NCBI RefSeq assembly: GCF_000020025.1
Contig: NC_010628.1
Location: 1,440,001 to 1,472,000, forward strand
Length of the DNA: 32,000 nt
Origin: Nostoc punctiforme PCC 73102
Lineage (GTDB): Bacteria; Cyanobacteriota; Cyanobacteriia; Cyanobacteriales; Nostocaceae
Direction: 5' to 3'
Part shown: in pieces, positions 923-4,770 of the stretch
How positions within the stretch are numbered: position 1 is the stretch's first letter
How the letters are laid out: the number at the start of each line of letters is the position of its first letter
Position numbers and translations under genes: made by a program
The notes under the pieces: model-generated
Database searches by the model: none
Seen by the model: the letters and a program-made list of their open reading frames with translations, nothing else
Told to the model about the DNA's origin: nothing

Positions 923-981
923 ACTACAAAATTTGTAGTATCCCCTTGACATTATGTAGAGTTCGTATTACATTTGTAGTA
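923..981 (+). promoter_or_regulatory. Candidate sigma70-type promoter with flanking operator-like repeats, upstream of the RNA/ORF array
   Basis: TTGACA at 946-951, a 17-nt spacer, then TACATT at 969-974. A perfect palindrome actacaaa-a-tttgtagt lies at 923-939. The 9-mer tttgtagta occurs at 932-940 and again at 973-981, bracketing the -35/-10 boxes. Confidence 0.4.
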
Positions 982-1055
982 TGAAAAGAAAAGCCTCCTC
1001 AAAGGCAAAACTAAAACCTCTCACAAGCTAGACAATTGCATAGATGCCACTGTTT

Positions 1056-1139
1056 GGGGCCGCGATTGGTGTTCGACTGCTCCGAAGCCAACAAACGGAC
1101 GGTTGCAGGATTCGGGTTCAATTCCCGACGGCTCCACTA
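1056..1139 (+). ncRNA. Minimal tmRNA tRNA-like-domain (TLD)-like RNA with no mRNA-like domain
   Basis: The 5' GGGGCCG (1056-1062) pairs 7/7 with 3' CGGCUCC (1129-1135), including a G3:U pair (alanine identity element). The T-arm UCGGG-UUCAAUU-CCCGA (1112-1128) abuts the acceptor 3' strand, followed by discriminator A1136. The 5' segment GGGGCCGCGAUUGGUGUUCGAC resembles the tmRNA 5' consensus GGGGCUGAUUCUGGAUUCGAC. The 3' segment ACGGAC...GGGUUCAAUUCCCGACGGCUCCACUA resembles tmRNA 3' ends. The interior is a short closed helix (CUGC/GCAG, CCG/CGG) where pseudoknots and a tag ORF would be. Confidence 0.55.
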
Positions 1140-1172
1140 GACTTGACTGCGGTTGAAGTTGTGTAGAGGCTT

Positions 1173-1382
1173 GGGTCTGTAGCTCTAACGGTAGAGATCC
1201 CGGATGTCACTTGTGCCCTAATAGAAAAAGCTTACATACTTGCTCAATGGTAGAGCGATCGTATCTTAACGATAAGTGCAGGTTCAATTCCTGCGGTGTT
1301 ACCACAGCTTTTTCAACTCGCATGAGGTGTGAGTGTAACTCTCACAGGGAGGGTATCGGTTCAATCCCGATCAGATCCACTA
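1173..1382 (+). ncRNA. Composite tRNA-like RNA: alanine-type acceptor, D-arm and T-arm enclosing a Y-RNA-like module
   Basis: Acceptor GGGUCUG (1173-1179) pairs 7/7 with CAGAUCC (1372-1378), again with G3:U. It is followed by UA and a D-arm GCUC-UAACGGUA-GAGA (1182-1197). The T-arm AUCGG-UUCAAUC-CCGAU (1355-1371) directly abuts the acceptor 3' strand, with discriminator A1379 then CUA. UCCC (1198-1201) pairs with GGGA (1347-1350), closing a ~145-nt insert that holds module Y1 plus a hairpin GUGAG/CUCAC (1329-1345). Confidence 0.5.
1208..1329 (+). ncRNA. Y-RNA-like module Y1 (YrlA-type, internal tRNA-like domain)
   Basis: The conserved 5' strand uGUGCCCUAAUAGAAAAAGCUUACAUA pairs with the 3' strand AGCUUUUUCAACUCGCAUGAGG (GAAAAAGCU/AGCUUUUUC plus GUGC/GCAU). 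The interior has a D-arm GCUC-AAUGGUA-GAGC, an anticodon-like arm AUCGU-aucuua-ACGAU and a T-arm GCAGG-UUCAAUU-CCUGC. Ends are approximate. Confidence 0.6.
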
Positions 1383-1449
1383 ATACGAATTCGTAATGAC
1401 GCTCCTGCGTCGCTAACGTAATTCGTAATTAAAACAAGAGGTGATTGCA

Positions 1450-1650
1450 ATGGTTCATATTCGATTTGAAGGACGTTCTGTTGATGTCCCAAAAACCCAA
1501 TTGGGAATTGCAGCAGGGATGAATGATGTGGCAGTGAAAGAGCGCGTTGCTCGACATTTAGATGTGAATAGCGATCGCCTTTCTGCTTACGTAATCGATC
1601 GCCGTCCTAGTGGCGATCTGATCGTCCGTCCTGAAGCTGTCTATGGTTAA
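1450..1650 (+). CDS. Hypothetical small protein (66 aa from ATG 1450), function unknown
   Basis: Open frame [66 protein letters not shown]. An extended SD aagaggtgat lies 8 nt upstream of the ATG. The track start (GTG 1441) sits inside the SD, so 1450 is preferred. I recognise no family. Confidence 0.6.
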
Positions 1651-1659
1651 ATTTCCTAG

Positions 1660-1848
1660 TCATCCGTGCCCTAACAGAAGAAGCATACATACACATTGAT
1701 AACGGCCCTAAGGTAGTAAAGTTCGAGTGATCGGACTAAGCGAAGCATGATTTCTAAGTCTCTTGCAGATTTAGCGTGCGTGCCCACTGCCAATATTTGG
1801 TAAGAGCGGCCGTAGCTGTAAAAAGCTTCTTGAACTTGTACGGAATGA
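1660..1848 (+). ncRNA. Y-RNA-like module Y2 (conserved closing helix, non-tRNA interior)
   Basis: 5' UCAUCCGUGCCCUAACAGAAGAAGCAUACAUA pairs with 3' AGCUUCUUGAACUUGUACGGAAUGA (CCGUGC/GUACGG including G-U, GAAGAAGC/GCUUCUU). The ~130-nt interior holds hairpins such as CCAA-uau-UUGG but no cloverleaf. Confidence 0.5.
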
Positions 1849-1858
1849 TTTAAGACTT

Positions 1859-2021
1859 AATTCCGCGCCCTAACTTGTAAAGTCTACACACTATCCGGCA
1901 ACGGATCGCAGGTACCCTACGGGAACGCTACGCGAACGATTCCTGTCGCTCCCTTTGATGGGAGCGTAGCCAAATTGGTATAGGCAATTGTGAAAACTGC
2001 TTTGCTAACTTGTGCGGAATT
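1859..2021 (+). ncRNA. Y-RNA-like module Y3 (conserved closing helix; interior carries a dispersed-repeat insertion and a D-arm-like hairpin)
   Basis: 5' AAUUCCGCGCCCUAACUUGUAAAGUCUACACA pairs with 3' CUGCUUUGCUAACUUGUGCGGAAUU (AAUUCCGCGC/GUGCGGAAUU). The interior contains ggtaccctacgggaacgctacgcgaacg, the same repeat family seen at 17966-18075 and 28707-28804. It also contains the hairpin CGCUCCC-uuugau-GGGAGCG and GCC-aaauugguaua-GGC. Confidence 0.5.
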
Positions 2022-2867: not shown

Positions 2868-2875
2868 AATTTTCA

Positions 2876-2997
2876 CTTCGTGCCCTAACTGAAAAAGCTT
2901 ACATACTAGCCGAATGGTAAGGCACTTGACTGAAGATCAAGCAACTACGGGTTCAAATCCCGTGTGTGAATCAACAGCTTTTTCGACTTGCACGAAG
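2876..2997 (+). ncRNA. Y-RNA-like module Y4 (YrlA-type with a tRNA-Phe-like domain)
   Basis: The closing helix CUUCGUGC (2876-2883) / GCACGAAG (2990-2997) is perfect over 8 bp, and the second helix GAAAAAGCU/AGCUUUUUC is also perfect. The interior has an acceptor-like CAUAC/GUGUG, a D-arm GCC-gaaugguaa-GGC and an anticodon arm CUUGA-CUGAAGA-UCAAG (7-nt loop with U33 and GAA at the anticodon position). The T-arm is ACGGG-UUCAAAU-CCCGU. Confidence 0.7.
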
Positions 2998-3032
2998 CGA
3001 TATTATTTCATTTCAATATGGAGGTGAGTCCG

Positions 3033-3104
3033 ATGAAAAAGATTAATTCTTTCAACATCGAGCCTGAAGATAATTGCCAATACCCCAGCAAAAGAAACTG
3101 GTAG
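3033..3104 (+). CDS. Candidate micro-ORF (23 aa)
   Basis: ATG 3033 is preceded by ggaggtgag (3020-3028). It reads MKKINSFNIEPEDNCQYPSKRNW. Only the strong SD supports it. Confidence 0.25.
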   Translation: MKKINSFNIEPEDNCQYPSKRNW

Positions 3105-3202
3105 TCGCAATAGCGGCAGATATGATGGCAGCTTATGCAGCTACTACTTTTAGGGAGTAGTACCAACGATTTCGATACATTACATCAAAACTGGCAGTTG
3201 TT

Positions 3203-3274
3203 GCCGTGCCCCGATCGCAGAAGCTTACATAACTCTGCACAAGTTATACACAATGCTTCTACAACTTGCGCGGT
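3203..3274 (+). ncRNA. Y-RNA-like module Y5 (minimal: closing helix plus a single stem-loop)
   Basis: 5' GCCGUGCCCCGAUCGCAGAAGCUUACAUA pairs with 3' AUGCUUCUACAACUUGCGCGGU (GCCGUGC/GCGCGGU with G-U pairs, AGAAGC/GCUUCU). The interior is a single hairpin AUAACU-cugcaca-AGUUAU. Confidence 0.5.
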
Positions 3275-3302
3275 GACTTGATCGCCCCGCGTGCAACATC
3301 TG

Positions 3303-3330
3303 CCTCCTCATCCATCACAACTAGAGGAGG
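3303..3330 (+). promoter_or_regulatory. Hairpin sequestering the Shine-Dalgarno site of the Ro-like gene
   Basis: CCUCCUC (3303-3309) is the exact complement of GAGGAGG (3324-3330), the SD located 6 nt upstream of ATG 3337. The loop is 14 nt. Confidence 0.4.
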
Positions 3331-3336
3331 TTCATA

Positions 3337-4770
3337 ATGAATACCGCAGAACGTGACCTGCGTTTGGAAATGCTCAACAGTTTGCTCACAACTCCTCACC
3401 GCAAGCTTGAGCAAGTCGCAGAAATTCATCAGTTAATTGTGGAACTCGATCCCATATTCTACGGACATTTGGCAGTTTGGTATCAGCGTCATGGTGATGT
3501 CCGCGACCACAAGGAAGTATTTGTTGCTCATTTGTTAACTAGCAATTTGACTGAACACCGAGATGCTGGATTTATGATGCTGCAAGAGTTTCCACCCTAT
3601 CAGGTAGCTCGTGTGGTGGACTTCATGAAGCAGCAGCAGAATAAACTGCCTCGTTCCGCCCGGACTGCGGTACGGCGTTACTTGAAAGTACGGGAGAGCA
3701 ATCCGGCTCTGTTCGATCGCGCCGCTTTGCGAGGTCGTAAGGCTATGAAGCACTTATATGCTTCACTGCATATCAAGCCAAATGAACGGGCAAATGCGAT
3801 TCTGTTTGGCGATACGCCTCCAGAGGGTTCTTTAGCAAATGTGCTGAAGCAGCTTGCGAAGGCTGAAAATGCCGCAGAGCAGGCACGGCTGATTGTGGAG
3901 TTCAACATTCCCTACACGATCGCAATTGGTGCGATCAAGCAACTTACACCAGTTGTATTGGTGGCGTTAATCAACAGCATGAGTCCTCAAGAAGCGATCA
4001 ACAACCTCAAGTCTCTCCAGACTAGAGGTGCAATGGATCACCCACAAGTCAAGAAGTTGATTGATTCCAAACTAGAAGCAGCGTCTAAGAGTGGGCGTGT
4101 CTCAGCATTCAAAGCACAGATTGCCACAGACGCAGGAGATTTTGACGCAGACACCGTTGCCCAACTGGAAAAGGTGACAAATGAACAGGTGAAACGGCGT
4201 GGTGCGATCGCTCGTCCAACTGCTTTATTAGTAGACAAGTCTGGTTCAATGGAAAATGCGATCGCGATCGGTAAGCAACTCGCTGCCCTCATCTCTGGTA
4301 TCACTAAGGCAGAACTGTTTGTCTACGCCTTCGACACCATTCCTTACGCTGTTACGGCAAAGGGCAAGGAGTTGACCGACTGGGAGCGTGCCTTCCAGCA
4401 CATCAATGCAGGCGGTGGTACTAGCATCGGCTGTGCATTGGAAGCAATGCGGCGGAAAAAGCAGGTGGTTGACCAGATAATTTTGGTGACGGATGAGGGC
4501 GAAAATGCTGCTCCTTATTTCGGTGAAGTCTACAAGAACTACTGCCGGGAGTTGGCGATAATGCCCAATGTGGTGATTGTCCGTGTGGGTACTCATTACA
4601 ACTGGGTGGAAAGTCAATTGAAGCAGCAGCAAGCACCTGTAGATACGTTCACTTTTGCAGGAGACTACTACAGTTTGCCGAACATCGTCCCACTCCTGAC
4701 GCGCCCCTCTCGTCTAGATTTGCTGATGGAGATTTTGGATATGCCGTTGCCTGTGCGGACTGATAAGTGA
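3337..4770 (+). CDS. rsr: Ro60/Rsr-like ribonucleoprotein (helical TROVE-like N-terminal region plus C-terminal vWA domain with MIDAS motif)
   Basis: The C-terminal half aligns block by block with my recollection of human Ro60. [10 protein letters not shown] matches LLAVDVSASM (MIDAS DxSxS). [11 protein letters not shown] matches [27 protein letters not shown] matches [26 protein letters not shown] matches VFIVFTDNETFAG. The N-terminal half has TROVE-like blocks: [10 protein letters not shown] matches LLRLSHLKP, and [19 protein letters not shown] matches MPLTALLRNLGKMTANSVL. The adjacent Y-RNA-like modules add context. At 477 aa it is shorter and more divergent than canonical Rsr. Confidence 0.7.

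Follow-up and report, generated by a model that had tools for sequence, protein, structure and literature searches.

What is the purpose of one RNA helix, repeated five times in front of a single gene and capped by differing domains, and what kind of protein does that gene encode? The question arises from a stretch of 32,000 nucleotides of the Nostoc punctiforme PCC 73102 genome (contig NC_010628.1, positions 1,440,001 to 1,472,000; the whole stretch is hereafter called the window), in which a preliminary description had proposed a Ro60/Rsr-like gene preceded by Y-RNA-like modules. We consider it probable that the locus is an operon for a divergent ribonucleoprotein (RNP) of the Ro60 family, that the five modules are its Y-RNA-like partners and serve as modular adaptors or decoys, and that the whole represents an undescribed branch of the Ro60/Y-RNA system. 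The modules, m1 to m5, share a bipartite closing helix, and they and the protein gene are placed as follows.

1208-1329, + strand: m1, closing helix and a tRNA-like domain whose arms run in normal order and which has an invariant ACCA inside
1660-1848, + strand: m2, closing helix and a domain of ~140 nt, with 35 orthologs
1859-2021, + strand: m3, closing helix and a YrlA-type tRNA-like domain, permuted to the order T arm, hairpin and D arm
2876-2997, + strand: m4, closing helix and a complete cloverleaf (2900-2971) with anticodon GAA, its acceptor stem running on into the helix
3203-3274, + strand: m5, a minimal module of closing helix and 6-bp hairpin with the 7-nt loop CUGCACA
3337-4770, + strand: the Ro60-like protein of 477 amino acids (aa), with a helical TROVE-type ring domain and a C-terminal vWA domain containing a MIDAS motif (metal ion-dependent adhesion site)

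Motif search and folding both recovered the five modules where the preliminary description had put them, with the common helix it had drawn. The 5' strand of a module reads GYGCCCYRAY, followed by the inner stem and UACAUAC, and the 3' strand consists of the inner stem followed by AACUYGYRYG. With up to one substitution allowed, the pattern G[CT]GCCC[CT][AG]A[CT] matches the five modules only across the whole 32-kb window. In the fold of every module the closing helix has 7-10 outer and 6-9 inner pairs on the two sides of an asymmetric internal loop, the z-scores ranging from -2.2 to -4.1. The consensus of this putative docking element is a 7-bp outer stem, an asymmetric loop with CCYRAY on the 5' side and AACUU on the 3' side, a 6-7-bp inner stem, and UACAUAC.

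For comparison, 80 related cyanobacterial loci were fetched via homologs of the protein, and modules were searched in these loci and the window (1.01 Mb) by the 5' motif and then by an outer stem with at least 6 of 8 positions paired, which leaves the inner stem as an unselected test. The search yielded 386 modules on the strand of the gene vs 10 on the opposite strand, with 2-7 per locus. With the invariant loop as anchor, pairing in the outer stem amounts to 98-100%, and one position of this stem is U-A in 189 copies, C-G in 119 and U-G in 14. The inner stem is 94-98% paired, with a position that is A-U in 137 copies, G-C in 130 and G-U in 39. An alignment of 73 diverse versions of the helix has standard pairs in 95.4% of its cells and double-sided changes at 12 of the 14 pairs, so the pairing-preserving substitutions that the preliminary description had noticed between copies in one genome are borne out among the related loci. 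None of 500 shuffles reached the observed pairing percentage, the number of cells with double-sided changes, the further pair types or the covariation score, and one of 500 reached the observed number of pairs with double-sided changes. Sliding the partner strand by 1-3 columns lowered the pairing to 30-54%. The stems vary; C5, C6 and A9 on the 5' side, AACU on the 3' side and the UACAUAC past the inner stem are near-invariant, and the 5' strand is GYGCCCYRAY across 325 helix versions. Invariant loop bases held within covarying stems are the signature of a protein-recognition site in a structural frame.

Conservation extends to the arrangement. The order from m1 to m5 is syntenic in most Nostocales loci, together with two of the interleaved open reading frames (ORFs), ORF66 and ORF240, described below; in many related loci, an additional module lies 3' of the Ro60-like gene. 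These observations bear on the idea that each module is a short selfish repeat derived from tRNA and akin to a MITE or SINE (miniature inverted-repeat or short interspersed element), and that such repeats accumulated here by chance. Cyanobacterial genomes are rich in short repeats, and m3 itself carries an insert of ~25 nt in its T loop, with similar ones in the TLD1 element (described below) of other loci. However, the motif is found nowhere else in the window, the strand bias is strong, the modules occupy orthologous positions across genera, covariation keeps two helices, and the same protein family accompanies the modules in phage-type contigs. We reject the selfish-repeat explanation as exceedingly improbable.

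The 477-aa protein had been described as combining a TROVE and a vWA domain. The vWA part is seen directly by Pfam, for which hmmscan at E<=10 returned VWA_CoxE and VWA_2 (residues 286-387) plus one chance match; the TROVE part escaped that check but emerged from the family profile and from the fold. In a single-sequence search of the PDB, the best match, a weak one, is 9l5y, a 'TROVE domain-containing protein' (E=4e-4) that the fold-search listing names as Ro60 of Thermus phage phiLo. A family profile built from 55 diverse members matches human Ro60 (9nen, 2.4e-16), phiLo Ro60 (9l5y, 3e-14, profile positions 24-393), Xenopus Ro60 (1yvp, 1.3e-12) and Deinococcus Rsr (2nvo, 2.5e-7). The AlphaFold (AF2) model, with a predicted local distance difference test (pLDDT) score of 88.6, is helical to about residue 287 and continues as an α/β domain. 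The top 13 Foldseek matches of this model in the PDB are all Ro60/Rsr, with template modeling (TM) scores of 0.61-0.70 over 460-546 aligned columns. The MIDAS motif DxSxS...T...D is invariant in the family (D300, S302, S304, T362 and D386). The profile matches, the whole-length fold match and the invariant MIDAS together indicate a true but very divergent relative of Ro60. Judged from sequence profiles and the predicted structure, the protein is a TROVE+vWA relative of the Ro60/Rsr type that current domain models overlook.

The family is large. There are >3000 homologs, 80-98% identical in Nostocales and in Leptolyngbya-like, Oscillatoria-like and Pseudanabaena-like cyanobacteria, which are annotated merely as 'vWA domain-containing' or hypothetical, and an all-against-library search gave 1011 cluster representatives. 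Pfam vWA_Ro60 is matched by 11 of the 55 profile members. NCBIfam has no match for the protein, ORF66 or ORF240, and the sole PHROGs match is that of the vWA region to phrog_850, 'RNA-binding protein'. It is noted that one family representative, P0134 (901 aa), contains an intein with a LAGLIDADG homing endonuclease, and that several others have N-terminal extensions of 250-450 aa without a Pfam match.

YrlA RNAs were found by their same-strand proximity to a Ro60 gene (PMC4201824). All five modules lie within 2.2 kb 5' of the Ro60-like gene, on its + strand, and the ends of each form a helix with a conserved internal loop. Considering the invariant loop bases in a covarying frame, the co-location, the strand bias and the co-occurrence of modules and protein across 46-98% identity, we infer that the Ro60-like protein binds RNA and that the shared helix docks on it, by analogy with Y RNAs. 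On this model the variable domain of each module would bring in a factor whose usual ligand is tRNA, transfer-messenger RNA (tmRNA) or the ribosome, or would compete for it, and a single protein would give a panel of differently addressed RNPs. The 'business ends' of such a panel would be tRNA-like domains in normal order (m1, m4), a permuted one (m3), a junction resembling helix 69 (H69) of 23S ribosomal RNA (rRNA) (m2), and a small hairpin resembling an anticodon arm (m5).

Several observations weigh against this reading. Pfam TROVE matches neither the 477-aa protein nor any of the 55 relatives at E<=0.01. Between 850 and 3400, Rfam Y_RNA and YrlA are unmatched at E<=10, so that of the Infernal models proposed in the preliminary description those of tRNA (m1, m4) and, near the threshold, tmRNA (TLD1) found a match beside chance ones, but those of Y RNA and YrlA did not. 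The Ro-binding motif is defined as GGUCCGA or GNCGAAN0-1G on the 5' strand (PMC4201824), and the module loop, CCYRAY/AACUU, differs from both. No module or repeat array is present in the short flanks of three distant homologs (L085-L087, 30-35% identity), two of which lie on contigs of <3 kb. The likeness of m2 to 23S rRNA consists of one 18-nt and one 11-nt match. Finally, the modules are interleaved with ORFs and one of them is located in the 5' leader of the Ro60-like gene, as would suit a purely cis-acting role; this alternative is weighed below with the leader.

The tRNA-like interiors of m1 and m4, detected by both ARAGORN and Rfam, have the arms in the order D, anticodon, T, with the closing helix prolonging the acceptor stem. 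The domain of m4 scores 57.6 bits over the full Rfam tRNA model and has a fold z-score of -4.1, with an A2:A71 mismatch. That of m1 scores 35.7 bits over model positions 10-63 only, and ARAGORN gives it an irregular 6-nt anticodon loop. Among the class-A modules, of which 62 are of the m1 type, the anticodon is CUA in 42, and the m1-type alignment shows a CUCUAAA loop; the orthologs of m4 have GAA, UGA, UAA, UAU or a loop deletion on a constant tRNA body. Over all embedded domains among the orthologs, those 42 copies with CUA are followed by UAA, GAA, UGA and others. Anticodons that drift while the tRNA body stays fixed mark the embedded domains as mimics, not decoders. A functional decoder tRNA was considered for m1 and m4 and rejected, the acceptor strands running into the closing helix and the anticodons varying among orthologs. 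The preliminary description had compared the two enclosed domains to those of YrlA RNAs. Both modules do enclose tRNA-like domains, but in normal order, and the YrlA-like module is instead m3.

Orthologs of m3 read, in their alignment, small hairpin, T arm, hairpin and D arm. The best match to the YrlA model (RF02553) is the m3 ortholog at L001 4216-4327, which aligns over the full-length model with 20.9 bits vs a gathering score of 69 (E=0.35). The window copy has its T loop interrupted by an insertion of ~25 nt at 1914-1938. Inserts of ~22-25 nt starting with ACCCURCGGGAA are located inside the T loops of m3 and, in some related loci, of TLD1; they may represent a small mobile insert with a T-loop target.

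The m2 interior contains AUAACGGCCCUAAGGUAG (1699-1716), which matches Escherichia coli 23S rRNA 1916-1933 at 17 of 18 positions (blastn-short, E=0.003), and GCGGCCGUAGC (1806-1816), which matches 1904-1914 at 10 of 11 by eye. The two segments pair with each other in the predicted m2 fold. The likeness of these strands to the 3' and 5' strands of H69 and its junction, in permuted order, is suggestive.

In m5, 57 aligned orthologs show compensatory changes in both the hairpin and the inner stem. The second position of the loop is constantly U and the last constantly A while the middle varies, as in an anticodon loop. The module typically lies ~165-210 nt 5' of the Ro60-like start codon.

It should be mentioned that a sixth kind of module, ~215 nt long and with the same closing helix, is present 3' of the Ro60-like gene in sister loci (L001 9804-10018, and also L006, L023, L028, L032, L038, L055, L064 and L067) and absent from the window. 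It matches E. coli 23S rRNA 1059-1088, in the L11/GTPase-associated center, at 27 of 30 positions (E=1e-5) and 2652-2665, the sarcin-ricin loop, at 14 of 14 (E=0.003), and its predicted fold has the expected three-way junction. The module looks like a mimic of a ribosomal factor-binding site; if it is one, it would to our knowledge be the first natural small RNA imitating such a site. Together with m2, it suggests a theme in which pieces of the translation apparatus are copied by the variable domains.

The association of protein and modules recurs on contigs of the giant-phage type. A homolog with 46% identity (L081) is encoded on a 500-kb JGI contig together with thymidylate synthase, dUTPase, a sigma factor and ThiF, and one with 47% identity (L082) in the 595-kb genome of uncultured phage LR756511. 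The first of these contigs has three modules of the form GYGCCCUAC...UUACAAAC-tRNA...GUGACAUGCRC, whose tRNA-like genes have the anticodons GCA, AAU and UUA; tandem G.A pairs are seen by eye in the inner stem, and a complete tmRNA follows directly after the array, which is 4 kb from the Ro60-like gene with other genes between. In the second, at least 12 modules (CGUCCCCNAC...AGCUUACAAAC / AACUUGGACG), listed by duplex energy, occupy the 4 kb 5' of the gene, and two of them hold good tRNAs, Thr-UGU (69 bits) and Ser-CGA (62 bits). The motifs of the phage-contig modules are CCCUAC or CCCCNAC, UUACAAAC and AACUUGG. A viral-contig library, scanned once with the protein of the window and once with that of the megaphage, gave no relatives. 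Two tRNA-like modules also lie upstream of a homolog with 42% identity (L084), at 1-260; as judged by eye, one has ACCCUAAC and the second a AACGAAUG box, near the classical CGAA Ro-binding motif, plus GCAUACAUA. These modules could link the two types of motif.

Real tRNAs within the helix, three of them in L081 with a tmRNA after the array and two in L082, might suggest that the element originated as a phage-derived tRNA cassette. The helix would be a leader-trailer duplex for the maturation or protection of phage-type tRNAs with the help of the Ro60-like protein, and its copies in cyanobacteria, sitting on a mobile or domesticated island, would be degenerate remnants that do little by themselves. 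The tRNA score of m4 and the insertion sequence (IS) fragment adjoining the Nostoc locus agree with such an origin. But m2 and m5, which contain no tRNA, are conserved as well as the other modules; the succession m1-m5 persists from genus to genus, with compensatory changes, where relics would decay; and neither m1 nor m4 has a proper acceptor end, and their anticodons vary among orthologs. We regard this explanation as quite unlikely.

Returning to the preferred RNP reading, the modules and the Ro60-like gene would belong to an operon with further parts, all on the + strand.

946-974, + strand: promoter-like site TTGACA-17-TACATT, found by a consensus scan (10/12)
1056-1139, + strand: TLD1, an 84-nt tmRNA-like tRNA domain with acceptor GGGGCCG/CGGCUCC (G3:U70), T arm and 3' ACUA, without an mRNA-like part
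1173-1382, + strand: TLD2, a 210-nt RNA of tRNA/tmRNA shape with acceptor GGGUCUG/CAGAUCC (G3:U70) and 3' ACUA, enclosing m1
1450-1650, + strand: ORF66, 66 aa, with a GAGGUGA Shine-Dalgarno sequence, predicted ββ-α-ββ fold and invariant C-terminal Gly
2078-2179, + strand: upstream ORF of 33 codons with a strong GAGGUGA Shine-Dalgarno sequence, overlapping the start of ORF240 (2145) in another frame
2145-2867, + strand: ORF240, 240 aa, found in cyanobacteria only, with 553 homologs
3033-3104, + strand: micro-ORF of 23 codons with a GGAGGUGA Shine-Dalgarno sequence
3302-3331, + strand: hairpin GCCUCCUC/GAGGAGGU covering the Ro60-like ribosome-binding site, with a predicted 8-bp stem (z-score -2.4)

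The order of the parts is promoter-like box, TLD1, TLD2 enclosing m1, ORF66, m2, m3, 33-codon ORF, ORF240, m4, micro-ORF, m5, ribosome-binding-site hairpin and Ro60-like gene.

TLD1 scores 46.6 bits with the Rfam tmRNA model, whose gathering score is 47, with 316 model positions skipped. It is present in 37 loci, with a compensatory change from C-G to U-A in the acceptor stem, and some copies end in CCACCA. ARAGORN finds no tmRNA anywhere in the window, and TLD1 has neither a tmRNA call nor a tag-peptide frame. TLD2 has a D arm (1182-1196), a hairpin like an anticodon arm (1329-1345) and a T arm (1355-1371). It is found in 68 loci (66 versions), for which the RNAalifold consensus recovers the exact nesting around m1. 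The preliminary description had counted two separate alanine-type tRNA-like domains; this has to be corrected, the second spanning 1173-1382 and enclosing m1. Between TLD2 and the ORF66 ribosome-binding site, at 1383-1440, there are TTCGTAA-type heptamer repeats and a small GC hairpin, and the number of repeats differs among loci.

The interleaved ORFs, which the preliminary description had also drawn, are real and conserved. ORF66 is intact in 75 of 75 loci with a match and is 77-100% identical among them. It has 956 homologs, some of which UniRef calls 'TGS domain-containing'. The AF2 model (pLDDT 87) is closest in the PDB to the folds of PB1, ISG15 and SUMO, all weak matches (E>=0.1, TM 0.4-0.5), and neither BFVD nor a PDB profile search gave a match. 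In each of the distant loci L081, L082, L085 and L087, four in all, an ORF66 homolog adjoins the Ro60-like gene, which makes ORF66 a core partner of the Ro60-like protein. ORF240 is intact in 55 of 67 loci with a match; it has no Pfam, NCBIfam, PHROGs, PADLOC or PDB profile match, and no similarity to the ~270-aa protein 3' of the gene in phage-type loci. The 33-codon ORF is open in 60 of 64 loci, and the conservation of its C-terminal part follows from the overlap with ORF240; it may be a coupling or leader ORF, with translation of the two possibly coupled. The micro-ORF elsewhere encodes a 19-22-aa acidic peptide, MKKINSFNIEPEDFDEFDDFCF, of which the window copy matches the N-terminal 11-13 aa only and diverges after residue 13.

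The phage-type loci surround the partners with additional genes. L087 has at 1682-5573 an operon of the Ro60-like gene, an ORF66 homolog with C-terminal Gly, a ThiF E1-like protein and a protein in which a JAMM motif, HEHPIGNLKPSLTD, is seen by eye, and L081 has at 7539-10307 the Ro60-like gene in an operon with an ORF66 homolog and a ThiF E1-like protein. A protein of ~270-283 aa is common to both operons. As read from the genes, the layout is that of a ubiquitin-like conjugation system. The ThiF and JAMM-motif neighbors are restricted to phage-type loci, and the window has no ThiF E1-like or JAMM-motif genes.

A more far-reaching version of the RNP reading can be formulated from these elements, which we offer tentatively and hold to be rather unlikely as a whole. 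The Ro60-like ring and its small ubiquitin-fold partner would display, on a universal docking helix, a miniature library of the translation apparatus as decoys for RNA-targeting toxins, as sentinels of damage or as bait for translation factors, and the kit would be common to cyanobacteria and giant phages. With the same reserve, the library would hold a tRNA, an anticodon arm, a tmRNA acceptor domain and 23S helix 69, to which sister loci would add the sarcin-ricin loop joined to the GTPase-associated center.

The same likenesses permit a conflict-system explanation, in which the modules are decoys or sentinels of the targets of RNA toxins (anticodon arms, acceptor ends of tRNA and tmRNA, 23S H69, and elsewhere the sarcin-ricin loop and GTPase center), the Ro60-like protein keeps hold of them and detects or clears away damaged copies, and giant phages use the kit against host defenses. 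All the interiors imitate translation RNAs, the anticodon loops drift freely on a fixed tRNA body, and homologs are found on giant-phage-type contigs, where the gene is joined to ThiF E1-like and JAMM-motif genes, as is often the case for conflict systems; some copies are plasmid-borne, the window copy adjoins a transposase fragment, and Ro60 is reported to be tied to an RNA-repair operon in Salmonella. Set against these points, PADLOC has no match for the 477-aa protein, ORF66 or ORF240, the cyanobacterial operon contains no nuclease, ligase or other effector gene, and a protein that is 80-98% identical across cyanobacterial orders looks more like one under housekeeping constraint than like a party to an arms race. 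We therefore consider a conflict system rather improbable.

For the RNP reading, the RNAs, ORF66 and ORF240 would probably be expressed as one transcript starting from the 946-974 site and be separated by RNases at the tRNA-like elements. Such co-transcription and excision are plausible because M. smegmatis YrlA is reported to be a substrate of RNase P (PMC4201824), and because the phage versions must release real tRNAs. The preliminary description had placed all modules 5' of the gene, on its strand and behind one promoter-like site. Location and strand are as described, but the consensus scan as a whole gave 8 sites vs 7.7 expected, and the 946-974 site alone is not significant. It is partly conserved and may function as a promoter: a strict regular expression finds the box 5' of TLD1 in 18 of 46 loci, and it is visible in the alignment in several genera.

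The 5' leader of the Ro60-like gene suggests regulation in cis. The hairpin at 3302-3331 would act as an anti-Shine-Dalgarno element. CCUCC and GGAGG boxes are both present 5' of the Ro60-like gene in 40 of 77 loci; the anti-Shine-Dalgarno box is absent in 30 of 77, and printed examples show AAAUCC-type repeats there instead. At 3196-3300, the 5' strand of m5 has an alternative downstream partner, 3285-3300, in the minimum free energy fold. Taken with the position of m5 in the leader, these predicted structures make a cis-regulatory component, in addition to the RNP, likely.

The leader also lends itself to a purely cis-acting explanation. The modules would be punctuation for processing or stability, with RNase P and RNase Z sites separating the ORF66, ORF240 and Ro60-like messages, m5 would be an autoregulatory operator coupled to the anti-Shine-Dalgarno hairpin, and no free Y RNAs would accumulate. 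The alternation of modules with ORFs that have strong Shine-Dalgarno sites, the usual distance of m5 from the start codon, the 8-bp hairpin over the ribosome-binding site with the competing partner of m5, the paired boxes in 40 of the 77 loci and the report of M. smegmatis YrlA as a substrate of RNase P (PMC4201824) are all in its favor. However, m5 is retained in the 30 loci without the anti-Shine-Dalgarno box, many loci have a module 3' of the gene where there is no ORF to punctuate, the array of L081 lies 4 kb off behind other genes, and interiors as elaborate and different as the nested TLD2 would be superfluous for punctuation. As the sole role of the modules, cis action is possible but in our view doubtful; it is compatible with the RNP reading and does not exclude it.

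Apart from the operon, the window contains a DUF772 transposase (IS) fragment at 77-679, directly 5' of the operon, and at 10968-14525, 6 kb downstream, a 1185-aa LRR-Roc-COR-TIR protein of the conflict type that resembles nucleotide-binding, leucine-rich-repeat receptors (NLR-like). Other neighbors are a phosphonate-binding protein and histidine kinases. Among the related loci, L078 resides on a Leptolyngbya plasmid. L016 has an apparent second tandem unit (772-3246, 3913-7434), with a second 240-aa ORF and a second upstream long ORF that is Ro60-like in size. Additional upstream modules in a similar pattern are present in L002, L014, L015, L035, L037, L041 and L044, and some genomes appear to carry two tandem units.

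Ro60 and Y RNAs are conserved from bacteria to human and Ro60 is a major autoantigen, and the purpose of the variable part of Y RNAs is largely open. One putative docking helix with many recognizable heads in one operon comes close to a natural experiment in the adaptor model, as each head predicts a partner. The locus also extends the Ro60 family to ~1000 clusters at 50% identity that are labeled merely as vWA proteins, adds an RNA class absent from Rfam, and links the system to giant phages and, there, to genes of ubiquitin-like conjugation.

Full-text searches on Ro60, Y RNA or YrlA in combination with cyanobacteria, Nostoc, tRNA-like elements or sarcin-ricin mimicry led to the classical papers on Rsr and YrlA, the one on phiLo and a survey of jumbo phages, and to no others. 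None of these describes this protein subfamily, the arrays and their helix motif, the nesting of the tRNA domain or the modules resembling rRNA. The preliminary description had considered the five-module array unusual. It is so in having no description in that literature, but it is not extreme, some loci having 6-7 modules and the megaphage locus at least 12.

Compared to known systems, TLD1 and TLD2 are like the tRNA-like domain of tmRNA in their G3:U70 acceptor stems, T arm and 3' ACUA or ACCA; unlike tmRNA, they have no mRNA-like frame or pseudoknots, and where tmRNA has its body TLD2 has an entire Y-like module. The position of m5, upstream of the gene and similar to the presumed RNA ligand of its product, is like that in the leaders of ribosomal-protein operons that mimic rRNA sites, and tRNA-like elements between cistrons are like the tRNA punctuation of polycistronic transcripts. 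Unlike leaders and punctuation, the modules have diverse interiors and, in other loci, are also found 3' of the gene and at a distance from it.

The conserved bulge beside ACUUG on the 3' strand recalls what we take to be the corresponding sequence of human Y RNAs, CACUUGAC. As in vertebrate Y RNAs (RF00019), the closing helix is formed from the 5' and 3' ends, but the bulge is CCY vs a single C, the 5' strand is GYGCCCYRAY vs GGUCCGA, and there is no Rfam match at E<=10.

Resemblance in gene arrangement and RNA architecture can be examined with the bacterial Rsr-YrlA/YrlB systems of Salmonella, Mycobacterium smegmatis and mycobacteriophages (PMC4201824, RF02553). They share with the Nostoc locus a Ro60-fold protein with vWA and MIDAS, nearby noncoding RNAs on the same strand, and a stem made by the 5' and 3' ends and interrupted by a conserved internal loop, plus a tRNA-like domain. 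In YrlA, the stem that binds Ro takes the place of the anticodon stem, and T is followed by an acceptor-like hairpin and then D (PMC4201824); the m3 orthologs have the same permuted T-hairpin-D order and align over the whole model, though below its threshold. In contrast, the Nostoc protein has no Pfam TROVE match, the loop is CCYRAY/AACUU instead of GNCGAAN0-1G, there are five to seven modules per locus vs one or two, ORFs are interleaved with the RNAs, m1 and m4 are unpermuted cloverleaves atop the helix, other modules have rRNA-like or hairpin domains, and no rtcBA genes adjoin the operon.

The Deinococcus radiodurans Rsr-Yrn1-PNPase complex (RYPER) and the Ro60-Yrl1/Yrl2 of Thermus phage phiLo (PMC12135203; 2nvo, 9kop, 9l5y) likewise combine a ring protein with stem-bulge-stem RNAs encoded 5' of its gene. 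The phiLo system differs in having two Yrl RNAs with a CGAA motif, and the identity of the window protein to Rsr and phiLo Ro60 is 14-19%. As with the Nostoc system, a phage-borne version exists, and in the single-sequence PDB search the window protein matches that of phiLo best. The adaptor principle, by which an RNA tethers Ro60 to another factor and which our model follows, is reported as established in Deinococcus and as proposed for phiLo.

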